Shown piece after piece: positions 4,640 to 36,539 of a stretch of DNA of 44,150 nt. This DNA is from a virus. Its lineage: Duplodnaviria > Heunggongvirae > Uroviricota > Caudoviricetes. How positions within the stretch are numbered: position 1 is the stretch's first letter; each line of letters starts with the position of its first letter. The stretch lies in the IMG/VR virus record IMGVR_UViG_3300045988_004957; one strand, 5' to 3'. The notes under the pieces are model-generated. The model was given only the letters and a program-made list of their open reading frames with translations, searched no databases and was not told the origin of the DNA. The position numbers were made by a program, and so were the translations under genes.

Positions 4640-4643
4640 AGAA

Positions 4644-14722: not shown

Positions 14723-14751
14723 TTGCACACCCCAATATAATAGTGTACTAT
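14723..14751 (+). promoter_or_regulatory. sigma70-like promoter with embedded dyad (site 1)
   Basis: TTGCAC-17 bp-TACTAT; dyad AATAGT-GT-ACTATT at 14739..14752; 40 bp upstream of ATG 14793. Confidence 0.55.
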
Positions 14752-24065: not shown

Positions 24066-24208
24066 CAATAGAGTATGGCCCTTCCGAACGCGTCAGCGTA
24101 ACTACACTCAGGACTTACGTCCCGCTCCGTTACCTGCCCGCGCCGCGGTCGCTTGTTCATACTTCACAAGCTCAGGTGGAGCTTATCATATTTTTAGTGA
24201 AAAGTCAA
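24066..24208. repeat. dispersed ~145-bp non-coding repeat, copy A
   Basis: Aligns with 36397..36539 over about 143 bp incl. identical 43-bp block 24143..24185. Confidence 0.9.
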
Positions 24209-25025: not shown

Positions 25026-26101
25026 TATTCCCCTTTCAGATAATCAGCAACACGTTTATCGAGTTCCGCCATCTGCTTAAGCGTGAGCGGATTCCCGAAA
25101 CCATCTACAGATATTACGCGAAACTCTTCCGGCGATATACCGCTGTTACGGAAAATCTTACCTCGCACCGGGCCGAGCGCCTGGTCCTGAAACCACGCCG
25201 GTTGTTGTTTAAGGAACTCGTAGTAAGTGGTGTCTGCGCTTACCTGAGTGCCACCTTCCGCGCCTTTAGCCGCGCGTTTTGCGCCTTTATCGAGGAAGTC
25301 GAACTCGGAACTGATTACCGGAGCCGTGCACGACCGGCAGTTCGGATGGGCTGGGGGCATCGGCCCCTTACCAATTTCCCACGTCATCCCGTCTCTGACC
25401 CTGCAAATCGTACTGGTGCGGCTGTCAAGCGTTGACACCCACTCGTACTTCTCGATGATGTCGTCGTTCTGGCGGTACGTCTCGTTACGGGCCTCGTTGG
25501 ATACGTGGGACAGCGCGGTGCGGATTACCGTAGTCGCGTTACGTTCTGAGATGTCGGCTAGTCCACCAGCGCCAACAACATTCTTAACAATCTGCCGTGT
25601 GGTTTGACCTTGCACAAAGCCCATCTTAACTCCAGTTACAAGACGTGCTACTTCCGTTTCGCCCCATCCAGACATCAGCTTGGTGAAATCAACGGGCTTG
25701 TCGCTCAATGATAATGGTTGAAACTCGGCAGCGGACCATACCTGCTCAGCGGTAGGCGTAACAAATTCCGCGTCTACGTTGGCGGTCAGTGTCTTTACGT
25801 TCCACTCAGCCTCGTACGCCGCCAGTTCCTTAAGGTCGTCTGTTAGCTTTGTTTGCCAGTCACCCGTAATACCGGTTAGTGCTTCTTCCAGGTCGCGTAA
25901 CAGTTTATTCAGTCGCGCAGTGCTGCGACCGTCGTCACCGAATAACAGCACCTGCCGTTTGATTTCATCCCTTATCTCCTGAATGAACGGCGTGAGGTCT
26001 TTCACCTCACCGGATGCGGTGCGTTGCAGCCATATCTGATGGCTGATTAGGGATGTAAGTAAGCTCATAGATAAACCCTGTGGCGCTAAAGTTAATAGCA
26101 T
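25025..26101 (-). CDS. head morphogenesis protein (minor head)
   Basis: 358 aa ORF immediately downstream of portal, as for Mu F / SPP1 gp7-type proteins. Confidence 0.55.
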   Translation of the reverse strand: MLLTLAPQGLSMSLLTSLISHQIWLQRTASGEVKDLTPFIQEIRDEIKRQVLLFGDDGRSTARLNKLLRDLEEALTGITGDWQTKLTDDLKELAAYEAEWNVKTLTANVDAEFVTPTAEQVWSAAEFQPLSLSDKPVDFTKLMSGWGETEVARLVTGVKMGFVQGQTTRQIVKNVVGAGGLADISERNATTVIRTALSHVSNEARNETYRQNDDIIEKYEWVSTLDSRTSTICRVRDGMTWEIGKGPMPPAHPNCRSCTAPVISSEFDFLDKGAKRAAKGAEGGTQVSADTTYYEFLKQQPAWFQDQALGPVRGKIFRNSGISPEEFRVISVDGFGNPLTLKQMAELDKRVADYLKGE

Positions 26102-26110
26102 ACTATAAGA

Positions 26111-26126
26111 AAGCCCCTTTCGGGGC
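26111..26126 (-). terminator. hairpin / attenuator after portal gene
   Basis: AGCCCC-GAAA-GGGGCT on minus strand followed by TTCTTAT. Confidence 0.4.
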
Positions 26127-26137
26127 TATAGGTGAAC

Positions 26138-27619
26138 TTACTGCTGAGTGGTGTCCTGTTGCTGCGCCGACTGCGGAATCTCTCCCGCTACCTGAGCAAC
26201 AGAACCCAACGGCAGAGGTGCGTCTTCAATAGCGTTCTGAATGTCCTCATCTGTCCAGTCAGTCACACCTGCCTTGCGCAACGCAGCATAGTAAGCGGTG
26301 GCGGGTAGCAGGCCAGCGTTAATATCCGCCATCCACTGAGCGCGGTCCTGAGCTGTCATAGGTTGCAGGAAGAATTCCATATTCAGCTTGAACTCAATCT
26401 CAGTATCTTCACTAAGCCCAAGCATACCCGCAACCCAGCGCAACGCATCGGTATACGCCATGCTTACATTACGTGCTATTGTTGCCATGACTGACGTGTC
26501 GGCGCCGCGTTGCAGGCGGGCCGATTCCGCGGTGATTTGCTGCGTCGGGGTGATAAGCTGCGCGCCAATCTGGATGGCCTGATTCTCTTTATCCAGCATA
26601 TTCTGTTTGGCGAGGTTAGTTTCCGCCGCCTGAACCAGAAACGCATTTCCGCCGGAGCCGATGTTGTGGCCTGAACGCGACCCCATGCGTATGCCGTGTG
26701 GGTTGGCTTCTTTCCACTGCTCCATGCTCATGTTCTCGCCGGGGGCAATGAACAGTGTCGGTTGACCTACTATAAAGCTGGCCTCTTCCACATCGGCCGA
26801 ATTTCTGAAGTGTCCTATATTTAGCTCAGCTAACGGCAGTAAAGGCGCATCGTCTATAGTGGCGTCGTTGTTGCTTGCGCCAATGAACGTGAACGGGATT
26901 TTACCGCGCAACTGTTCGCCGAGTTCCGGGAAGATTTCGATTACTTCATCCTGTGCGCCACCTTCGGCATCGAAGCGGTAGATGCGCTGGCGGTAGCGAC
27001 CGTCAATCAGGTCAAGGACGCGGTATTGCTCGCCGAATTTTGTTTCAAACTCAGCGCCTGGTTCCGAGTATTCCCATGCCTCACGCAATACAACCATCGT
27101 CACGCGGTTCACTGAACCGATGCGGGTGAGTCTCCAGTTGATAATGTTCTCCGCGGTATAGAATGCGATTACCGGGTTTAATAATCCCGCGTTCTGCTCT
27201 GCCGCCGTTGCTGCGGCTGTTTCCGGGGCGTCCACCAGCAACCCGCCACGGCCTATCGAGTTAATCTCCATCAGCGTATCCTGCGCGTGCTGCCACAGCC
27301 CGACACCTGAACCGTCAGCGTTGTGCAACAGGTACTCAAGTTCAGGCGGGATAATCTGCTCAGGGTCTTTGCGCATCACTGACCCCGTCATCCCCGCCAG
27401 CGTGCGTTTGGTGAAATTGTAGCAGATAGCGCCGTTCTCGTATTCTTCCTGTCGCTGTGCTGCGTAGGTCTGGTCAGGCTCGTTCTTCCCGACGTTGCGC
27501 AGATAGCGGATAAGGTCGCCTTCAAGAGCGTGGCGTACCTTCTGCCATTTATCGAAGTGATGCAGCCATTCCCGGTGTTTTGTCTTAACACCCTGATTCT
27601 GACCGTTCATAGTTAACAT
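26138..27619 (-). CDS. portal protein
   Basis: 493 aa acidic ORF between terminase large subunit and head morphogenesis gene. Confidence 0.65.
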   Translation of the reverse strand: MLTMNGQNQGVKTKHREWLHHFDKWQKVRHALEGDLIRYLRNVGKNEPDQTYAAQRQEEYENGAICYNFTKRTLAGMTGSVMRKDPEQIIPPELEYLLHNADGSGVGLWQHAQDTLMEINSIGRGGLLVDAPETAAATAAEQNAGLLNPVIAFYTAENIINWRLTRIGSVNRVTMVVLREAWEYSEPGAEFETKFGEQYRVLDLIDGRYRQRIYRFDAEGGAQDEVIEIFPELGEQLRGKIPFTFIGASNNDATIDDAPLLPLAELNIGHFRNSADVEEASFIVGQPTLFIAPGENMSMEQWKEANPHGIRMGSRSGHNIGSGGNAFLVQAAETNLAKQNMLDKENQAIQIGAQLITPTQQITAESARLQRGADTSVMATIARNVSMAYTDALRWVAGMLGLSEDTEIEFKLNMEFFLQPMTAQDRAQWMADINAGLLPATAYYAALRKAGVTDWTDEDIQNAIEDAPLPLGSVAQVAGEIPQSAQQQDTTQQ

Positions 27620-27631
27620 TGAATAATCCTC

Positions 27632-28903
27632 TTAAAGTGCGAAAGTCACCGGGACGTTAATAACTGGTTTGCGAATCGGCATTTCATACGCGATAGGGTA
27701 TGTGGTTCCATCATTCTGGTGGTCCACACCGCCTGATTTATCCGGTTCGCCGTTCTTGTCGTAAGCCTGTTGCTCCAGGCATCGTGCGGTAACAGGGCAA
27801 GCCTGTTCATTAATCATGACCATACCAGATTCAAGCGCCTTATTCATCGCCGCTACGCGGTCTTTAACCGGTGGGTTTGTCGATTTAGCGCGCACTTCGA
27901 AGCCGGCCTGCTGTAACTGGGCAATATCAGATGTGCTGGCGTTGTTACTTTTACGGTTTTTACCGCTTGCGTCGGGGTACATAACGATATAGTGGCCCTT
28001 ACTTTTCCAGCGCTCTGTTACGGCTCTCACCACATCGGGCGTATCGAACATATCCACCAACTCGGCGACTGCATGCCAGACTTTGCCACGTTGCACGTAA
28101 ACTGTACTAGCCATGTGGCCTACGTTAAAGTCCTGCCCGATATACAGAGTCTCGCCTGGTTTTATCGTTTCGCGGCTGCTGTTTTTCCTGCGGTCATAGG
28201 CGTAATAGACAGTCCCCGCCGTCAGGTTGACGAACTCGCCGTTGATGTAGGCGTCAATCAACTGACCTGGGTATGTGTCGCGTAACGACTGCACATAATC
28301 TTCTGGCAGGAACGGGTTAGACAGGGTGGACGCCTGAATCATCTCGTAGCCTGGATTCTTTTTGACTACCCAGCGGTCATGTACGAAACGGAATCCTTCC
28401 GGGGTAGTGAACACGGAAACGGTATTAGCAGGTTTCGGTGTAATAGGTTTATATGTCCGCGGCAACTGGCGGTTACGGGCGATGACTTTGTTCCACGCGT
28501 GCTCGGCGTGCTCCATGTTAAGGGTGTCCAACTCGTCGATTTTCGCACGAAACGATTCGTAGCCAACGATTCGTGCTGGATTATCAAGTGTACGCAGAAC
28601 AAAATCCCCAAATTGTCCGGAAGACGTATAGATTATGTTGTCAGACTTGTTGTATTTGTACCGGATACCCCAGTCGGTGAGCTTTTCTTCCATACGCGGT
28701 GCAAGGATGAGGCGCACCAGGTCATAAGTCGGCTCATACATGGCGATGATAGAATCGCTACCACCTTCCATGCTGTCGAGTAGTGCAGAGTTGCACATAA
28801 CTTCGGATTTACCCGTACCGAAGCCAGCTACGAATGCCGGAAACTTGCAATGCATACCGAGAAACGCGCCTTGCGGCTCCGTTGCCGTGATATTAACGTT
28901 CAC
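27632..28903 (-). CDS. terminase large subunit
   Basis: Walker A GFGTGKS near N-terminus, C-terminal nuclease-like half; 423 aa. Confidence 0.85.
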   Translation of the reverse strand: MNVNITATEPQGAFLGMHCKFPAFVAGFGTGKSEVMCNSALLDSMEGGSDSIIAMYEPTYDLVRLILAPRMEEKLTDWGIRYKYNKSDNIIYTSSGQFGDFVLRTLDNPARIVGYESFRAKIDELDTLNMEHAEHAWNKVIARNRQLPRTYKPITPKPANTVSVFTTPEGFRFVHDRWVVKKNPGYEMIQASTLSNPFLPEDYVQSLRDTYPGQLIDAYINGEFVNLTAGTVYYAYDRRKNSSRETIKPGETLYIGQDFNVGHMASTVYVQRGKVWHAVAELVDMFDTPDVVRAVTERWKSKGHYIVMYPDASGKNRKSNNASTSDIAQLQQAGFEVRAKSTNPPVKDRVAAMNKALESGMVMINEQACPVTARCLEQQAYDKNGEPDKSGGVDHQNDGTTYPIAYEMPIRKPVINVPVTFAL

Positions 28904-29402
28904 CGGACACCACCTTAATTGTTACTTCGCTGATTGGCTCGTCGCGTACTTCTTCGGCGACAACTGTTTTATTCAGGCCCAGTTTCGCGGCAGCAAACGT
29001 AGCAGAGATGCCCGCGGCCCCCGTTTCAGTGAAGTATGCCTCTTCCAGCGCCTGTGCTGTCTCCCAGGCTTCTGCAAATGCGGGAATCTCACGCAGCCAA
29101 AGCTTAATAATCGGGATAGTGACTCCGATGTGTAAGGCGAAGCGGGCCAGTGACGGTGGTTTATCCTGAATCAGCGGGCGTTCGTCACCCTTAGACGTAG
29201 GCACAAGCTCCCACGACGTGCGGTCGAAGAACTCGATTAGTGCATCGCAATAGCCCGGGTCCCACAACGCGGCGGAATTACGGGATGATTGATAAAGGCT
29301 CTGTTTACCGCGCGGTCGTTTACGGCGACGGTTTGCGCTAACAGCTTCTTTATGCGCAGCTTGCACCACCTCTGGTGATGGTTGCTTAAGTGTAAGTTTC
29401 AT
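28893..29402 (-). CDS. putative terminase small subunit
   Basis: ORF overlapping terminase large start; start taken at ATG 29402 with SD AGGGGG; basic N-terminal region. Confidence 0.45.
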   Translation of the reverse strand: MKLTLKQPSPEVVQAAHKEAVSANRRRKRPRGKQSLYQSSRNSAALWDPGYCDALIEFFDRTSWELVPTSKGDERPLIQDKPPSLARFALHIGVTIPIIKLWLREIPAFAEAWETAQALEEAYFTETGAAGISATFAAAKLGLNKTVVAEEVRDEPISEVTIKVVSGER

Positions 29403-29500
29403 ATAACCCCCTGACATATGCGTCTGACCATCAGAGCGCACCAGACGCGCCCTACGCGTCTAAAGGGATTATATAAGGGGATTGGGCGGGATGTACAGAA

Positions 29501-29520
29501 AAGCCCTCCGTAGAGGGCTT
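29501..29520 (-). terminator. hairpin terminator / attenuator
   Basis: AAGCCCTC-TACG-GAGGGCTT on minus strand followed by TTCTGT. Confidence 0.5.
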
Positions 29521-29578
29521 GTATCAGTTATATAGGCCGTGGCGTGGCGCTCGTTTACCGTCGCCGCCGTAATGGTCG

Positions 29579-29851
29579 TTAGCTACCGCTATAACCCAGG
29601 CATTCGGAAAGACTAAAAGTTGCATTAAATTCCTCAAGGTCTATTTTACGAATACATGGTGAAAGGCAATCAGCGAAAACCAACTCACCAGAATCAATAA
29701 CGACGAATCGCCAGCCTTTGAATATGTTCTCGGAAATACCCTCCGCAACTTCGCGTACATTAGGCATGTGTTCTGGGAAATCGTGGAAGTTTCTGGACAA
29801 AAATTCAAGGGCCTCACACCGGTTTATGTGGTAGTTATCATATCCAATCAT
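29579..29851 (-). CDS. hypothetical protein
   Basis: 90 aa ORF, last of a tightly coupled minus-strand small-gene cluster. Confidence 0.45.
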   Translation of the reverse strand: MIGYDNYHINRCEALEFLSRNFHDFPEHMPNVREVAEGISENIFKGWRFVVIDSGELVFADCLSPCIRKIDLEEFNATFSLSECLGYSGS

Positions 29852-30108
29852 TCCCCGCTCTCCTCTTTAGCGATGCGTTGCTCTGTTTTAGTGATACCGC
29901 GGCGCGTGAATAACACCGGGCTTGTCTTAACGTGCGTCATAAGGCGGTTATTATAAATTACATGGCGCTCGCATTTCACGTCTTTGCTGTACTTCGCAAT
30001 CGTCATTTCGTTGAGGCCTGTTTGTCGGCACGTCTCCGCCATCGTGCCAAATTCTTTAATAAGGTTAGGAATGCTGGTAATCATCCTAAGAAATTCCTCG
30101 TCGTCCAC
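29848..30108 (-). CDS. hypothetical protein
   Basis: 86 aa ORF, ATGA coupling to downstream gene. Confidence 0.45.
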   Translation of the reverse strand: MDDEEFLRMITSIPNLIKEFGTMAETCRQTGLNEMTIAKYSKDVKCERHVIYNNRLMTHVKTSPVLFTRRGITKTEQRIAKEESGE

Positions 30109-30202
30109 ATCGCATTAGTATCTGCCCCACAGAAACCCAACCAATAGTCCGATGAAGTAACTAAGACCGACCAGGCCAATAACAACCTCAAGACTCATAC
30201 TC

Positions 30203-30403
30203 TTACCCCACTATCTCATCACCTAGCCACGCCGTTTCTCGTATATCGTCGACCACACAAGCGGCGTGCTCGCGGCTAATTGCAAAAATGTAGAAGCTGA
30301 ACTTCTTCCCGTCGGCGTCGATGTGGTTAACCGAGTATGGTTTCCACAGGACGCCATCAATAACTACCGGTTCAGGCGCTTTCATCTTCTGGTCCGACAA
30401 CAT
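30203..30403 (-). CDS. hypothetical protein
   Basis: 66 aa ORF in co-directional cluster. Confidence 0.4.
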   Translation of the reverse strand: MLSDQKMKAPEPVVIDGVLWKPYSVNHIDADGKKFSFYIFAISREHAACVVDDIRETAWLGDEIVG

Positions 30404-30662
30404 TGTCGTACAGCGGGATTATCACATCAGCCCCATCCTTTGAAGCTGCGGTTGCCGTGTTGTAATAAGCCAGCGAAGAACTGTCTTCACCGACGAACAA
30501 CCCCGCGTACACGTTCGGTTCTTGCGTCTTAATAGCCAGTAACTCCTTAAACGCCTCCAGTTGAAACTCACCGTTAATTGACAGTTGCCCGCCTAACGTC
30601 TGTTTCTCTGACTCAAGGACCAGAATACGACGCTCAAGTGACGCGATTGTGATTTTAGGCAT
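30372..30662 (-). CDS. hypothetical protein
   Basis: 96 aa ORF in co-directional cluster. Confidence 0.45.
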   Translation of the reverse strand: MPKITIASLERRILVLESEKQTLGGQLSINGEFQLEAFKELLAIKTQEPNVYAGLFVGEDSSSLAYYNTATAASKDGADVIIPLYDNVVGPEDESA

Positions 30663-30886
30663 TATTCGGCTCCCTCATAAAAATCGCCATTTCGGTAATC
30701 CCCATCGAAATCGTCAGAAATAGCGCGCCCCTTGTTCATGTTGAAGCGGCTAATCAGCTCACGGCGGCGTTCCATAAGATTATCCACCTGCCGTAAGTGG
30801 TGTTCGATGTGGGTGTCAATCCACGCTATTTCAGATTCACCGGTCGCGGATTCGACGCATGCTTTTTCATATTCGTTATTAGTCAT
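30662..30886 (-). CDS. hypothetical protein
   Basis: 74 aa ORF, ATGA coupling with upstream ORF. Confidence 0.45.
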   Translation of the reverse strand: MTNNEYEKACVESATGESEIAWIDTHIEHHLRQVDNLMERRRELISRFNMNKGRAISDDFDGDYRNGDFYEGAE

Positions 30887-31041
30887 ACTTTACGCTCTCC
30901 CCACATGCGATTGAGATACTTGTTCTTGTCCGGCCCGGGGAAACTGTTACGTTTCATCAGTTCCTCGCGTGTCGGGAACGGGGTGTGGCTGACTTTACGG
31001 CCTACTCGTATTGACGGGTTTATTTGAACTTGTTCACTCAT
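30883..31041 (-). CDS. hypothetical protein (52 aa)
   Basis: ATG 31041 with SD GGGAGG, ATGA coupling on both sides; below ORF-track cutoff. Confidence 0.4.
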   Translation of the reverse strand: MSEQVQINPSIRVGRKVSHTPFPTREELMKRNSFPGPDKNKYLNRMWGERKV

Positions 31042-31235
31042 TCTACAACCTCCCATTTAACGCCGTGGAAGCCATCACCTTCATCGTTACCAAAGTCTAT
31101 GAAAATACAGCAGTCGTCGTCGGAGTCTATATAACCGAAACCAGTAGCTGTCGGGTTGTACACATCGTACACTTTACCCTCTGTCACATAGTCAAGGGCG
31201 GCTAACCAGAGAATTTTAGCGGCTTTAACTTTCAT
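31038..31235 (-). CDS. hypothetical protein
   Basis: 65 aa acidic ORF in coupled cluster. Confidence 0.45.
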   Translation of the reverse strand: MKVKAAKILWLAALDYVTEGKVYDVYNPTATGFGYIDSDDDCCIFIDFGNDEGDGFHGVKWEVVE

Positions 31236-31381
31236 TTCTTCTCTCCTGCATAAGCTGCTTTAAGTGTCTGCATCGCAGCGAACCAGAACGCGTCCGCTGG
31301 AATGCTGTTGCTCAGGTTACTAACTGCGATGCGCGCCATCAGTTGCGCGTCTTTGAATGCTTCGATATCTGTGATTTTCAT
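31232..31381 (-). CDS. hypothetical protein (49 aa)
   Basis: ATG 31381 overlapping upstream stop (TAATG) and ATGA coupling downstream. Confidence 0.4.
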   Translation of the reverse strand: MKITDIEAFKDAQLMARIAVSNLSNSIPADAFWFAAMQTLKAAYAGEKK

Positions 31382-31581
31382 TAGTTATTCTCCAGTATTT
31401 CTAACGCTTTCACGAGGTAACGTTTACGTAAAACATCAGTCTGCGCGCTATTAGCCCTGCGTATGTAGCCCGCAGCAGCCCTCATCTGTAGTTTTTCCAC
31501 CGAACCATTCCCTATTATAGCTGATGCGATACATTTAACTTCGAGTTCTTCGGTTATTTCTATCGTCGATACGTTGCCCAT
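31381..31581 (-). CDS. hypothetical protein
   Basis: 66 aa, first gene after promoter 31616..31644; SD GGAG. Confidence 0.45.
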   Translation of the reverse strand: MGNVSTIEITEELEVKCIASAIIGNGSVEKLQMRAAAGYIRRANSAQTDVLRKRYLVKALEILENN

Positions 31582-31615
31582 TTCTCTCTACTCCGTTCTC
31601 GTTGTCGATGAAGTA

Positions 31616-31644
31616 AATATAATAGGGTCGAGGATAATAGTCAA
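31616..31644 (-). promoter_or_regulatory. sigma70-like promoter for small-gene cluster
   Basis: Minus strand TTGACT-17 bp-TATATT immediately downstream of the lysis-cassette terminator. Confidence 0.5.
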
Positions 31645-31674
31645 CTAGTCATCACAGAAAATAGATAAAAAAAA

Positions 31675-31702
31675 TCCCGGCTGGGTCAGGGCCGGGATAA
31701 AA
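31675..31702 (-). terminator. rho-independent terminator after lysis cassette
   Basis: Stem TCCCGGC / GCCGGGA with 9-nt loop flanked on minus strand by T4 and T8 runs. Confidence 0.7.
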
Positions 31703-31762
31703 CTGGAGAGCAGAGGGATGGAGCAGGAGGTGATTTAAGTATCGTCGGATTAGTCTTATGTG

Positions 31763-32248
31763 TCAACCTTTCACCGCGCGCCCGATAGCCTCTGCCTCTT
31801 GCCACGGTTTACCGTCGAACAGTGCCAGACGTCCGGCGGTACGGCGACGCAGGCCTAGTAACGGTTTGCCGTTCTGGTTGATGAACAGCGCCAGCTTAGC
31901 CCGCAGCGTTGCAATATCACCAGAACGCAGTGCCTTACCCGTGCCGGTAGTAGCTGCAATCACACCAGCACCTGCGTTGTATACCAGGTCGCACACTGCA
32001 TCGAACTGTGCCTGTGTCAATGAATGGTGTGCTGCTGCGTCAACCGCAGCTACGGCCTTAGCCATATCGCGATTCAGTAGCAGTAGACCTTGTCCCGGCG
32101 TGATTGTTTGCCCCGCCTTAACGTCCGGCCCGTAGTGACCGTACCCGATAGTCAGGTACTTCTCATTTGGCGTAGCACGATACGCAGTTCCGCGGAATCC
32201 CTCGAACGCGGCGGTGAATTTGATGCCATTGTTGCTAATGTTTCTCAT
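31763..32248 (-). CDS. endolysin (GH24 T4-lysozyme-like)
   Basis: N-terminal catalytic region FEGFRGTAYRATPNEKYLTIGYG with Glu-Asp-Thr spacing; no signal-anchor. Confidence 0.8.
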   Translation of the reverse strand: MRNISNNGIKFTAAFEGFRGTAYRATPNEKYLTIGYGHYGPDVKAGQTITPGQGLLLLNRDMAKAVAAVDAAAHHSLTQAQFDAVCDLVYNAGAGVIAATTGTGKALRSGDIATLRAKLALFINQNGKPLLGLRRRTAGRLALFDGKPWQEAEAIGRAVKG

Positions 32249-32778
32249 AAAGCACCTTCCCGTAATTTATGGTTCGCGAAAACCCCGTGTATCTTCTCTC
32301 TAGCTTCTTCGGCAACTAGCGCGGCTAGTTCTAGGTCCGCAAAGTATCCGTAAAAATACTTAATCTTATGTATTTTTAATTGAACGTACCATCCTCCTTG
32401 TTGCTTCTGCCACATAACGTTCTTAATACCGGATTTGCTGTCCTTTCTTGGCCCTTTGTTGCATCCGTTTTCGGATTTGTTGGCTTCACGTAAATTACAG
32501 AATCTATTATCACGACCATCGCCGTTTATGTGGTCTATTAGGGAGTTGGGCCATTCCCCTGTCATGTATAGCCAAGCGAGACGATGCGCCAAGTACCGCT
32601 TCCCACCGAAGGCTATGGAGCGATAGCCTGCACAATGGTTGGCGCCAGCCTCACTTCCCGCCCGAGCATTGTGCACACGTGTAGCTTTCCATGTAAAAAC
32701 TCCGGTATCGGGGTCGTAGTGTAAAACCTCGCGCAGCTTATCTGCGGTAAGTCCATTATCTGAAATGTTTCGAGACAC
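32245..32778 (-). CDS. HNH endonuclease
   Basis: HNH core LIDHINGDGRDNRFCNLREA..N; start taken at GTG 32778 with SD GGAGGA; ATGA coupling to endolysin. Confidence 0.75.
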   Translation of the reverse strand: MSRNISDNGLTADKLREVLHYDPDTGVFTWKATRVHNARAGSEAGANHCAGYRSIAFGGKRYLAHRLAWLYMTGEWPNSLIDHINGDGRDNRFCNLREANKSENGCNKGPRKDSKSGIKNVMWQKQQGGWYVQLKIHKIKYFYGYFADLELAALVAEEAREKIHGVFANHKLREGAL

Positions 32779-33028
32779 GCTTATGTCCTCCGTACGACAG
32801 CCACGCCTGACGAATCTGGCGCAGCGCAACTAAAGTGATTAATGTTTCCGGCAGCGTCGGTGACATGCTGCCTTGTAACAGGTGGATACAACCTGCGGCG
32901 CAGACAATAGCAGTGAGGATATACAGCACACGACCAAACAGACCGTCGTCTACGCTGGGGTGGTATACGTTAAACAGCGATGTGCCCCCGATTGCGAGCA
33001 TACCGCAAAACCAGAATAACTCATTCAT
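32756..33028 (-). CDS. two-TM membrane protein (holin-associated)
   Basis: ATG 33028 overlapping holin stop; two hydrophobic helices. Confidence 0.45.
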   Translation of the reverse strand: MNELFWFCGMLAIGGTSLFNVYHPSVDDGLFGRVLYILTAIVCAAGCIHLLQGSMSPTLPETLITLVALRQIRQAWLSYGGHKRVSKHFR

Positions 33029-33329
33029 TACCACCTCCGCGGCGTGCGATATATTCTCCGGCGACAATGCCAGAGAGACGGGAATAAATTGGCATCCAGA
33101 GAATAGCAATGATGAATCCAAGGCCCGCTATTTCGCGTTCACCTGCGATACCGAACCATTGAGCGGCGAGAGGCGCACCGAATACGGCGCACGCAAAGCC
33201 AGTGGCGAGAAAACAGAGAGCATCGACAGGGCCGGTAATAGTGGCTTTGTGTTGCCGTAAGCCTATTACCCCACCAGCTAATGCGGCAGCGAGAAGCCAC
33301 CCCGTCACTGTTTCAGTAAATTTATCCAA
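33021..33329 (-). CDS. putative holin
   Basis: 102 aa with TM helices and charged C-terminus, first gene of lysis cassette; start codon is TTG. Confidence 0.5.
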   Translation of the reverse strand: MDKFTETVTGWLLAAALAGGVIGLRQHKATITGPVDALCFLATGFACAVFGAPLAAQWFGIAGEREIAGLGFIIAILWMPIYSRLSGIVAGEYIARRGGGNE

Positions 33330-33375
33330 GATGAAGCCACCCCGTCACTGTTTCAGTAAATTTATCCAAGATGAA
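33293..33375. repeat. 40-bp tandem direct repeat (2 copies) across the holin start
   Basis: 33293..33332 identical to 33333..33372, next 3 nt also repeat. Confidence 0.9.
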
Positions 33376-33444
33376 TCCTCCAGGTGCGTATTAAGTATGC
33401 AGTAACTGGAGGATAGCACGGTTAGGAATTATCTTAATAACGGT

Positions 33445-33742
33445 TTATTTATGACGCCAGATGTATTGTCGTCTCTGCGGTTTAGTCGGAATATCATCGT
33501 ATCCGAGCGATTTCCAGTAATTAAATAACCGATTAGCGATTGCCGCGCGTTCCTGTGTTTTAAACTCTCCTAGATTCACGGCCTTTCCGTTCTGGAATCC
33601 ACAGGCGCGGATAGCTTTACGCCGTTCTTGTATCTCTGGGTACAGCACGTTACGGCGACGCTTGTGTATACGTGTCTTCGCTCTCGGTGACAGCGGCGCA
33701 AGGCCGCTTCGTTTCAGGATGTCAGTTGCTAACGACATCACT
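33445..33742 (-). CDS. hypothetical protein
   Basis: Start taken at ATG 33742; basic 98 aa ORF. Confidence 0.4.
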
Positions 33743-33940
33743 CCACCCCTCCACATGTGTAACCGACCCACAGTTCGCGCACTCGACGTAATCAGGGTAC
33801 TGGTCTTTGTATTTCTGTAACTCAGCTTCAAGTTCCTGCAGTTTAAAATCAAGGTTCTGGTAATCCTCAAATTTAACCCACTCCCCATTACGGTCGATGA
33901 AATGGTTATCCGACCCATATTTAGAATATCTTGCCACCAT
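33722..33940 (-). CDS. hypothetical protein
   Basis: Start ATG 33940 with SD AGGAGAAG; CxxC near C-terminus. Confidence 0.45.
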   Translation of the reverse strand: MVARYSKYGSDNHFIDRNGEWVKFEDYQNLDFKLQELEAELQKYKDQYPDYVECANCGSVTHVEGWSDVVSN

Positions 33941-33942
33941 AA

Positions 33943-34146
33943 TCACTTCTCCTGTTTTCCAAGTCGCTTAGGTGAGCAGATAGCGCGTACCTCTGAATCG
34001 TTGGGCTTGTCGCCCTGAAACAGGAAGTGCGCGTTCTCTGCGGCGCGTGCCGCTGACTGGCACGCCTCCATCGAGTAAAACGTTTCTGATGCCGCTAGTT
34101 GCATCTGGCCCGCCGACAATACCCAGATAAATAAGATGCTGGTCAT
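33943..34146 (-). CDS. small secreted-like protein
   Basis: ATG 34146 (ATGA coupling); hydrophobic N-terminal signal-like segment. Confidence 0.4.
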   Translation of the reverse strand: MTSILFIWVLSAGQMQLAASETFYSMEACQSAARAAENAHFLFQGDKPNDSEVRAICSPKRLGKQEK

Positions 34147-34676
34147 TGCTTCGCCTCCACACCACATTTACGGCAATACGGAACACCAGGTCTATTGCCA
34201 AAAACCGTCTTACATCTCCACTCATGCTCACATTCCTGAGTATCGTTTTTCGGTTTATATACCTTGTCGTCCCACTCACGTTTACCACATTTAGAGCAAA
34301 GCTCACTACCAGGAACGTTGTTCGGATTGCCTTCGCTGAGAAACAACCCAGGCATAATAATCCAAGAGTGCTCGCATTCCTGAACGTCTTCCTTACGGCA
34401 ACCGGATTGCTCGGGTCCGTGTTCGCCTGCTACGTAGCTCTTCCCATTAGGCAGTGGGCCGCCGTGGTTGGTTACACGGTAGAAGTCCTCATTCATTAAC
34501 GTTATTGTCCCCAGTAGCTCATCCACCAGCGCCGAAGCATCACGTAACTGATTCTTTAGTGACTGCACCTCATGCGCCAGGTCTTCGCACCGGTTGTTAT
34601 TTACCTGCTGCCGTAGCTGGTCAATCAGGTACTCGAATACTTCGTTTTTATTGTTCACTCTGTCTCCCCCCCTCAC
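34143..34676 (-). CDS. Cys/His-rich hypothetical protein (zinc-ribbon-like repeats)
   Basis: Two internal repeats QECEH.W ... C.KCG; coiled-coil N-terminus; real start may be GTG 34658. Confidence 0.5.
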   Translation of the reverse strand: MRGGDRVNNKNEVFEYLIDQLRQQVNNNRCEDLAHEVQSLKNQLRDASALVDELLGTITLMNEDFYRVTNHGGPLPNGKSYVAGEHGPEQSGCRKEDVQECEHSWIIMPGLFLSEGNPNNVPGSELCSKCGKREWDDKVYKPKNDTQECEHEWRCKTVFGNRPGVPYCRKCGVEAKQ

Positions 34677-34955
34677 TTATTCAACAGCACCTGTTATTGC
34701 TATAAGCCCGGTGTTACCGCGGCGGCGATACTTACGAATCACCGTTTTAAGCTCTTCATTGCTACTCTGATGCCCGAAAGTTATAGGCAACTCCCCCCCG
34801 CCGGCCATACCAAACTCAGTAGCTATTGGCTTGTCTCGCCACCCCTGGATGAACCCGTTACTGTCACGCGTTATGTATCTGTAGTTGTTGGGGAGGGGCA
34901 ACTCCAGCCCCTCAAAATCAACAGTCACGGTGTAGCTGCTAAAATTCATAGTCAA
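34677..34955 (-). CDS. hypothetical protein
   Basis: ORF-track start is TTG; ATG at 34949 more likely. Confidence 0.45.
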   Translation of the reverse strand: MTMNFSSYTVTVDFEGLELPLPNNYRYITRDSNGFIQGWRDKPIATEFGMAGGGELPITFGHQSSNEELKTVIRKYRRRGNTGLIAITGAVE

Positions 34956-35088
34956 TTACCCCGAACTCATTGATGATTTGAGCCTTGTAGAAGTTGCCGT
35001 TTGAGGCCAGGTGATATGCCTGCGCCATAGTCATCTCACGGTAAGTTGCTGCGCTGTTTTCAAACTCCATAATCATCAAAGTAACCAT
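34939..35088 (-). CDS. hypothetical protein (49 aa)
   Basis: ATG 35088 with SD GGAGAGG, first ORF downstream of promoter site 3. Confidence 0.35.
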   Translation of the reverse strand: MVTLMIMEFENSAATYREMTMAQAYHLASNGNFYKAQIINEFGVIDYEF

Positions 35089-35118
35089 CTCTGCCTCTCC
35101 TCTCGTTTGTGTAAATGA

Positions 35119-35147
35119 ATAGTAGACTATTCTATCCCAGTGTGCAA
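35119..35147 (-). promoter_or_regulatory. sigma70-like promoter with embedded dyad (site 3)
   Basis: Minus strand TTGCAC-17 bp-TACTAT; perfect dyad AATAGT-AG-ACTATT at 35118..35131. Confidence 0.5.
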
Positions 35148-35283
35148 GTAAATTTTATTGGTGTCTGTTATTGTTGCATCTCCTGCAATAGTCGCTTCGA
35201 TTGTTGCGTTTCGTGCAAGTGTCGCCTTTTGACGACACTAAGCTAAAGTTGTACGCTGCTGTGTAGCAGCGTAAGTCACTCAG

Positions 35284-35457
35284 TCAATTAGTAACCTTTT
35301 GACCTGTTACACCACCTGTTATACCCGCCCTTGCTTGCACACCAGCTTTCCACGCCCGCCACGCAAGACGCGTCTTAACGTTCAGGTACTCTTTCTTCGA
35401 ACCCTTGTTAACCGGCAGCCCCTCGACGATGGCCCATCGTTCAAATGCTTCTCTCAT
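35284..35457 (-). CDS. hypothetical protein
   Basis: Start taken at ATG 35457; basic. Confidence 0.35.
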   Translation of the reverse strand: MREAFERWAIVEGLPVNKGSKKEYLNVKTRLAWRAWKAGVQARAGITGGVTGQKVTN

Positions 35458-35508
35458 ACCAACCCCCACAACGCGTGCGCCACATAAACGGCGCTGACAA
35501 TTAAAATG

Positions 35509-35745
35509 TTATCCACGGCAACCTCCCTCAGAGTCGTCGGCACGAGCATCATGATTAGATGCCGTTGTGTATACCTTCGCTTCTGCCTTAGTTACCGGGA
35601 TTGTGTATCTTCCTGTCTTAATCCACCAGCCATCCTCACAGGAATCCAGTACATTGAAAACATCACCCACATTTACGCCTATTTTCTCGAGAGTATCACC
35701 ATCTTCTTCGTAGATAACGGTGTTATCTGTAATTATGATTTGCAT
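35509..35745 (-). CDS. hypothetical protein
   Basis: ATG 35745 overlapping upstream stop; acidic 78 aa. Confidence 0.45.
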   Translation of the reverse strand: MQIIITDNTVIYEEDGDTLEKIGVNVGDVFNVLDSCEDGWWIKTGRYTIPVTKAEAKVYTTASNHDARADDSEGGCRG

Positions 35746-35936
35746 CACTTCACCCCTTTGAATTTAAAATTGTTGCCGATGAGTGTTAAATTATCTCTGA
35801 AAGCGTAACCATGTTTCTTTCGTACAAGACCCCATACGTCTACAGCGGTACTATATTCATCCTCATTCTGGGTAACTATTACGTACTGTCCGCCGCGTTT
35901 TGTTTTAACCAACTGACCCTTCTTAAACATAACCAT
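35745..35936 (-). CDS. hypothetical protein
   Basis: Small basic ORF, SD AGAGGAG. Confidence 0.45.
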   Translation of the reverse strand: MVMFKKGQLVKTKRGGQYVIVTQNEDEYSTAVDVWGLVRKKHGYAFRDNLTLIGNNFKFKGVK

Positions 35937-35948
35937 CACTCCTCTGTC

Positions 35949-36167
35949 TTATTTAAAGTAGATAGCAAATTTCTTGTAACCCGCTGGCTCGTTACGAAGT
36001 CCTTTACCGTTAGCGAAACGTTGTACGTTAACAAAATCATTTTCATCCATTCCGTCGGTGTCGAACGTAAAGAAGTTGCGCTTGTTCCCGATAATTACGC
36101 GCTCTGAGATATCGATGCCGTAAACTTCTTTGATTGCGGAAACTACGCTTGCGGTCGCTTTGTTCAT
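35949..36167 (-). CDS. hypothetical protein
   Basis: 72 aa, first gene after promoter site 4; SD AAGGAA. Confidence 0.45.
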   Translation of the reverse strand: MNKATASVVSAIKEVYGIDISERVIIGNKRNFFTFDTDGMDENDFVNVQRFANGKGLRNEPAGYKKFAIYFK

Positions 36168-36201
36168 TTCTAAATTCCTTATGTCTCGTTCCGATAAGTG
36201 A

Positions 36202-36230
36202 ATAGTATCCTATTATGTTGGGGTGTGCAA
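36202..36230 (-). promoter_or_regulatory. sigma70-like promoter with embedded dyad (site 4)
   Basis: Minus strand TTGCACACCCCAACATAATAGGATACTAT; dyad at 36201..36214. Confidence 0.55.
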
Positions 36231-36396
36231 GATAATAGTTACGTTGCCGTTGTGATTCTTTTGTTTCTTTAAAGAGTACGCAACGCAGCGGGTGGGCTAA
36301 AGCCCACCCCAGCGGAGTGAAGTACTCTCTACCTTGCTTACGGCAACTATAGAAACTTTTAATTATTAGTGACTTGGGTTATTTAGACGGGATTTA

Positions 36397-36539
36397 CAAT
36401 AGATTATGGCCCTTCCGAATGCAGGCAGCGACACTACACTCAGTGCTGACGCACCGCTCCGTTTCCTGCCGCACCGCGGTCGCTTGTTCATACTTCACAA
36501 GCTCAGGTGGAGCTTAGCACATTTCTTAGTAAAAGTCAA
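36397..36539. repeat. dispersed ~145-bp non-coding repeat, copy B
   Basis: Paralogue of 24066..24208; identical 43-bp block at 36474..36516. Confidence 0.9.

Follow-up and report, generated by a model that had tools for sequence, protein, structure and literature searches.

Microhomology-bounded spontaneous tandem duplications are classic in the genetics of phage T4 and of E. coli lacI. At the 5' end of the phage lambda holin gene S, control involves a stem-loop, sdi, and dual starts that yield S107 and S105. In phage MS2, the lysis gene L is reportedly translated by ribosomes that terminate nearby and then reinitiate. More generally, termination-reinitiation is documented in E. coli for stop and start codons spaced within −8 to +6 nt, with −8 less efficient than −4 or −1, and coupling needs no more than the last 15 nt of the upstream gene (PMC10666635). 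An overlap of 8 nt belongs to the NTGNNTRR class, and translational coupling has been described at overlapping gene pairs (PMC10666635; Huber et al., 2019, PMC6728339). Here, we analyzed a holin start region that can be compared with each of these systems. It lies in a viral DNA sequence of 44,150 nt (IMG/VR record IMGVR_UViG_3300045988_004957), the whole of which is referred to below as the window.

Results

Source genome and lysis cassette

The window is a near-complete genome (~44 kb) of a Kagunavirus-type (K1G-like, Guernseyvirinae) E. coli siphophage, a wild coliphage recovered by metagenome sampling. The closest genomes, Escherichia phages vB_EcoS-22664BS2 and SHAK7858, are collinear with it at 94–97% identity. 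No tRNA and no Rfam family was found anywhere in the window, the holin leader included. The lysis cassette is carried on the minus strand in the order holin1, holin2, an inserted HNH endonuclease gene, and a lysozyme-family endolysin; next to the holin, neither a sigma70-like promoter nor an intrinsic terminator was found.

33021..33329, minus strand: holin1, 102 aa; PHROG 2359 'holin' (E 3.7e-29); three hydrophobic helices by hydropathy
32756..33028, minus strand: holin2, 90 aa; PHROG 2508 'holin' (E 7.8e-34); two hydrophobic helices
32245..32778, minus strand: HNH_3 endonuclease gene, Pfam PF13392 (E 3e-14), inserted between holin2 and the endolysin
31763..32248, minus strand: endolysin, phage lysozyme family, Pfam PF00959 (E 2.9e-27)

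The holin1 protein ends in a charged tail (ARRGGGNE), and the endolysin lies 0.8 kb downstream; with its small size, three helices, charged tail, and nearby endolysin, holin1 is class I-like as judged from sequence. The gene is intact in 68 of 68 relatives, where synonymous codon differences outnumber non-synonymous ones by about 3:1, and its protein is unchanged in phages whose local DNA is only 87–95% identical to the window. This pattern indicates that holin1 is under purifying selection. A literature search for Kagunavirus holin function gave no study. The holin2 gene overlaps the end of holin1 and has a Shine-Dalgarno (SD) sequence of its own (GGAGGUGG, duplex −10.8 kcal/mol).

The 177-aa HNH protein of the window was matched exactly in other contigs. 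Among the relatives, SHAK7858, DUEC01, and several metagenomic contigs have its gene, and Bas72, Schulenburg, and 22664BS2 lack it. It sits ~0.5 kb from the duplication described below, and the ENA MEGAHIT contigs of the strain break near its 5' end, at 32715 and 32807; a link between the HNH gene and the duplication by way of break repair is speculation.

A perfect 40-bp tandem duplication at the holin1 start

The start region of holin1 contains the following array, which is missing from every relative.

33293..33375, minus strand: perfect tandem array, a 40-bp unit twice plus 3 nt (TTC)

Tandem Repeats Finder (TRF) reported for this segment a period of 40, 2.1 copies, 100% matches, zero indels, and a score of 166, while no other array in the window scored above 50. 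The unit is present 2.075 times at 100% identity. In gene orientation, copy 1 spans 33372..33333 and copy 2 spans 33332..33293, with no spacer between them. A repeat search found the 40-bp pair to be the sole perfect long direct repeat in the 44-kb genome; in 44 kb, with all periods to 500 allowed, the number of perfect tandem matches ≥43 bases long expected by chance is ~3e-19. The array agrees to the base with the two identical copies, and the 3 nt of a third, that had been described in an initial annotation made by reading the sequence.

Both borders of the duplication carry a 3-nt TTC microhomology (GGAGGA/TTC...GGC/TTC...GGC/TTC TCGC). In the direction of the gene, the sequence runs GGAGGA/TTCATCTTGGATAAATTTACTGAAACAGTGACGGGGTGGC/TTCATCTTG...GGTGGC/TTC TCGCTG. 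Every single-copy relative also has TTC at both borders (GGAGGA-TTC...GGC-TTC-TCGC), and the best explanation for the origin of the array, judging from these sequences, is that two TTC triplets separated by 40 nt underwent slippage or unequal exchange. The copies show zero divergence, so the duplication is very recent, as the initial annotation had offered among its explanations. Direct repeats of 40 bases readily undergo precise deletion, and the allele is therefore expected to revert to the wild type.

A tandem duplication bounded by microhomology is a textbook kind of mutation. Like those of T4 and lacI, this one has identical head-to-tail copies, a 3-nt border repeat, a length that shifts the frame, and single-copy ancestors, and it should revert precisely. 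Unlike them, it was not selected as a mutant in the laboratory but comes from phages in the wild, sampled by metagenomics, and it hits a translation-initiation region, where it creates an upstream ORF instead of a plain truncation. For a duplication at a holin start, no precedent was found in the literature.

Support for the duplication junction in an independent assembly of reads

Strain-specific neighboring genes were looked up by exact protein, which led to contigs of the strain in the Logan assembly of run SRR2565850; a literature search gave no publication that mentions the run or assembly accessions. Logan assembles at k=31, drops singleton k-mers, and contains no 31-mer repeated within one accession (PMC12424806). 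When the k=31 graph of the window was simulated, it contained a node of in-degree 2 starting at 33375 and a node of out-degree 2 starting at 33323, and it predicted that the upstream contig should end at 33346 and the downstream contig should start at 33322. Both predictions match the Logan contigs: one (L062) ends at 33346 and matches window 36503..33346 at 99.94% identity, and the other (L074), with its start at 33322, matches the 7285 nt of window 33322..26038 at 100% identity. Since the breaks fall on the predicted branch points, the duplication junction must have been present in the reads, in k-mers seen at least twice. Support for the junction in sequencing reads is thus indirect but exact. 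Strain SNPs were rejected as the cause of the breaks: no relative varies at the bases on either side of the 43-nt repeated segment, and the known polymorphic bases of the unit (27, 33, and 36) would put the break points elsewhere. More broadly, the exact break points of k=31 Logan contigs could serve as a read-level test of short tandem duplications.

These results bear on whether the true genome is single-copy, with the extra copy arising from an untrimmed k−1 overlap or from chimeric reads; the initial annotation had left an assembly artefact standing as an option. The repeat is perfect, its 40 nt equal k−1 at k=41, only one copy appears when this strain is assembled with MEGAHIT, and the window looks like a raw linear contig, all of which an artefact would explain. 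However, it would leave unexplained why an independent read assembly breaks at both predicted bases, which SNPs do not account for, and the 3-nt microhomology is typical of genuine slippage. The window is indeed an unrotated linear contig, but its ends abut in the DNA polymerase gene, 10 kb from the repeat, and an untrimmed circularization overlap was rejected on that ground. Nor does the window hold further anomalous indels: compared with the two closest genomes, each of the others is offset by another a few bases away, also found in one of the two, or intergenic. We therefore regard an artefact as largely refuted and very unlikely, and the duplication as genuine.

Relative to both closest genomes, 5 nt (GCTAC in SHAK7858) are missing where the contig ends meet (44150 and 1). 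This gap arises because the genome is circularly permuted and the window is a raw linear contig that stops short of closure; it is not a biological frameshift.

Copy number among related phages

Comparison with related phages had been proposed as a check, and it proved informative: the region is uniformly single-copy in all ~180 related sequences. In GenBank, 121 of the 121 phage records matching the region have one copy, and among the 60 matches listed of these 121, 141–143 query bases align to 101–103 record bases in two pieces each. The one long alignment expected of a two-copy genome occurred in none of the GenBank records matching the region. All 38 IMG/VR loci are likewise single-copy, as are ~24 further contigs (10 with an identical holin, 4 with a strain-specific 171-aa protein, and 10 with an identical HNH protein). 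An exact search of IMG/VR for the junction gave no match. Two metagenome matches and one genome match to the junction were rejected as chance 21-mers with unrelated flanks. Complete E. coli genomes gave no match, and thus this is not a prophage.

One of the single-copy sequences, the ENA contig k141_55196 (MEGAHIT), equals window 38659 to 32715 minus one 40-nt copy, two poly-G sites aside, and it shares its poly-G differences with the Logan contig. On these sequence comparisons, the duplication is private to one strain, and one- and two-copy alleles occur within essentially one phage strain. The two sites are a G versus A at 34794, in a 92-aa ORF, and G7 versus G6 at 34672, which is intergenic and in the SD of the next gene. 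Apart from the duplication, they are the sole differences between the window and the same-strain Logan and ENA contigs, and they could be real micro-variation or consensus error.

An upstream ORF and a displaced holin start

Since 40 leaves a remainder of 1 on division by 3, an upstream ORF of 15 codons now starts at the native initiation site, and holin1 begins at the second copy of the start codon. The elements of this arrangement are as follows.

33322..33369, minus strand: upstream ORF, MDKFTETVTGWLHLG, TTG plus 14 codons plus TAA, made by the duplication
33322..33329, minus strand: 8-nt stop/start overlap, TTGGATAA, second TTG (33329..33327) and upstream-ORF TAA (33324..33322)
33376..33381, minus strand: native strong SD, GGAGGA, spaced 6 nt from the first TTG; −9.3 kcal/mol for its duplex with the 16S 3' end
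33337..33343, minus strand: weak to moderate SD-like element, GGGGUGG, spaced 7 nt from the second TTG; −6.6 kcal/mol for its duplex, P(unpaired) 0.34

The first TTG is at 33369..33367, and the second opens the 102-aa holin. The upstream ORF encodes the first 12 holin codons, then an out-of-frame HLG, and stops. All relatives use the GGAGGA-N6-TTG start, and none of them carries the upstream ORF, so that a conserved regulatory upstream ORF or leader peptide was rejected. The GGGGUGG element falls in holin codons 9–11 of copy 1, at a spacing like that of the native SD (6–7 nt), and a small new junction hairpin is predicted at the second TTG. A rough initiation-energy model put the second TTG, acting alone, at 0.06–0.12 of the wild-type rate, an estimate that is crude (to a factor of several) and that leaves out ribosomes translating the upstream ORF. 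The overlap between the upstream-ORF stop and the holin start, which the explanation we favor renders as UUGGAUAA, lies on one mRNA strand and inside the spacing of about −8 to +6 nt that allows termination-reinitiation.

The anatomy thus stands as the initial annotation had it, with a strong GGAGGA and a TTG closed after 15 codons by TAA and a second TTG opening the holin. Its other proposals call for refinement. The SD before the second TTG is weaker, as claimed (−6.6 versus −9.3 kcal/mol), and is better described as a moderate GGGGUGG. Termination-reinitiation is plausible given the 8-nt overlap, but the statement that holin synthesis depends on it goes too far, because the second TTG has its own SD.

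The GGGGUGG element is found only in relatives in which Thr9-Gly10-Trp11 is written ACG GGG TGG, and many have ACA GGC TGG; in the latter, a like duplication would give the second start a still poorer ribosome-binding site.

A TGA lies in the holin frame between the two TTGs, and no N-extended holin can therefore arise without frameshifting. Given this TGA and the different frames of the two TTGs, initiation at the first TTG was rejected as a source of an N-terminally extended product, and a lambda-type dual-start holin/antiholin pair, with TTGs 40 nt apart, was rejected on the same grounds. A +1 slip at CUU-C that would give an extended holin is conceivable but unsupported.

The arrangement resembles coupled overlapping gene pairs in its co-directional ORFs, its NTGNNTRR 8-nt overlap, and its SD-like motif inside an upstream ORF of at least 15 nt. 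It differs from them in that the upstream ORF is an accidental 15-codon fragment, the start is UUG, and the coupling is putative. As with MS2 L, the lysis protein is predicted to be kept low by dependence on terminating upstream out-of-frame reading; the MS2 layout, however, is conserved and essential, whereas that of the window is a private mutation in a dsDNA phage with a canonical holin.

A conserved leader hairpin predicted to mask the native SD

The leader upstream of the first TTG is predicted to fold into a hairpin that includes the native SD.

33375..33414, minus strand: leader hairpin, 9 bp; 5' arm AUCCUCCAG (33414..33406), 3' arm CUGGAGGAU (33383..33375)

The predicted fold has an energy of −14.7 kcal/mol (z −3.76; 0/200 shuffles), and within it the P(unpaired) of the strong SD is 0.01–0.02. 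The 60–75 nt leader is nearly invariant in the relatives examined, also where the upstream gene differs, and rare stem variants retain or lengthen the hairpin (A-U to G-U in relative L046; a longer stem in L036). The hairpin matched no Rfam family. It is predicted to sequester the strong holin SD and, on this model, looks like a built-in throttle on holin translation. GGAGGA had been called the only strong SD of the region; the strength of its duplex holds, but the site is predicted to be buried in this conserved 9-bp stem.

By analogy with lambda sdi, the hairpin may act as an sdi-like throttle in this phage group. The likeness to lambda S extends to a hairpin at the holin ribosome-binding site (here predicted), a three-helix class I-like holin, and a lysis time that would be sensitive to holin supply. 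Unlike lambda S, the window has no dual in-frame start, its TTGs lying in different frames with a TGA of the holin frame between them; unlike sdi, the Kagunavirus hairpin is predicted to mask the SD itself, and its sequence is unrelated. A nearly invariant hairpin predicted to mask the holin SD across a phage group is a broader lead in its own right.

Discussion

Proposed effect of the duplication and its alternatives

The reading that we consider probable is that of a recent, private duplication that gives holin1 two initiation routes, lowers its synthesis, delays lysis, and can revert. The hairpin-masked strong GGAGGA site would serve only the 15-codon upstream ORF, and the holin start would be displaced 40 nt downstream, where it overlaps the stop of that ORF by 8 nt. 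Along one route, ribosomes finishing the upstream ORF would reinitiate at the overlapping UUG; along the other, initiation would be weak and independent, at GGGGUGG-N7-UUG. The net result would be fewer holin1 molecules per transcript and, for a threshold-triggered holin, later lysis. From this model, lower holin1 expression with later lysis is the most likely outcome. Loss of one copy would restore the wild type precisely, and the allele would be unstable. Several points weigh against this reading. Reinitiation could be minor, given that a −8 overlap is less efficient and that UUG starts are weak. The two-copy form and the single-copy MEGAHIT contig may share one sample of origin, in which case the former could be the minority allele, or even defective and dependent on complementation by the wild type. 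Finally, holin2 might make the level of holin1 irrelevant.

In a different account, the duplication is a tolerated knock-out or near knock-out of holin1, lysis proceeds through holin2 or through co-infecting single-copy siblings, and the extra copy is a neutral or deleterious passenger. The second TTG alone is predicted to be ~10-fold weaker, a second holin-like gene with its own strong SD follows directly, and a single-copy sibling is known in an essentially identical background. Yet the intactness of holin1 and its purifying selection across the 68 relatives make dispensability unlikely, the −8 overlap with its SD-like element forms a workable reinitiation site, and the abundance of the two-copy genome sufficed for its assembly into a complete contig of 44 kb, which argues that the allele is viable; we hold this account to be unlikely. 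Far less credible is the proposal of the initial annotation that the upstream ORF and its overlap evolved as a lysis-timing element of the phage group. The SD, the short ORF, and the 8-nt overlap with the holin start do resemble designed translational coupling, but the arrangement is missing from ~180 relatives, one of them identical elsewhere bar two poly-G sites; its copies are undiverged and so extremely young; and the upstream-ORF peptide is merely the first 12 holin codons continued out of frame. As a feature of the family, such a device is refuted, and we consider selection for it extremely improbable. There is similarly little reason to expect a reversible expansion/contraction switch, in which the annealing/exonuclease recombination of the phage would gain and lose the 40-bp copy at appreciable frequency. 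That both alleles are known from genomes otherwise essentially identical fits a switch without showing one. If it did operate, a clonal population would always mix early-lysing one-copy and late-lysing two-copy members and so bet-hedge its lysis time.

The one- and two-copy alleles form a natural near-isogenic pair of holin initiation regions, otherwise two poly-G sites apart. This pair makes a clean test case both for the way in which holin translation rate sets the lysis time of a non-model coliphage and for the capacity of an accidental upstream ORF with an 8-nt overlap to support reinitiation. The locus also matters for annotation: gene callers still give a 102-aa holin from the second TTG and overlook the displacement of the native ribosome-binding site.

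Additional observations

Several other repeated elements were noted in the window. Promoter- or operator-like boxes of the form TTGACA...GAATAGT..CTATTATAGTT occur at 2319, 36191, 40045, 40089, and 42913, and TTGCACACCCC...TACTAT boxes occur in both orientations at 14723, 24275, 35103, and 36186. Terminator-like hairpins (AAAAGGCCCC..GGGGCCTT) are located at 4642, 17194, and 24534, and a 71-nt repeat pair with 89% identity is located at 24138 and 36469. With regard to the reference genomes, the record of vB_EcoM_SHAK7858 (GenBank OR594183.1) bears a myovirus name and an Autographiviridae/Kayfunavirus classification, yet its sequence is collinear with a Kagunavirus-type siphophage; the record probably carries a taxonomy error.
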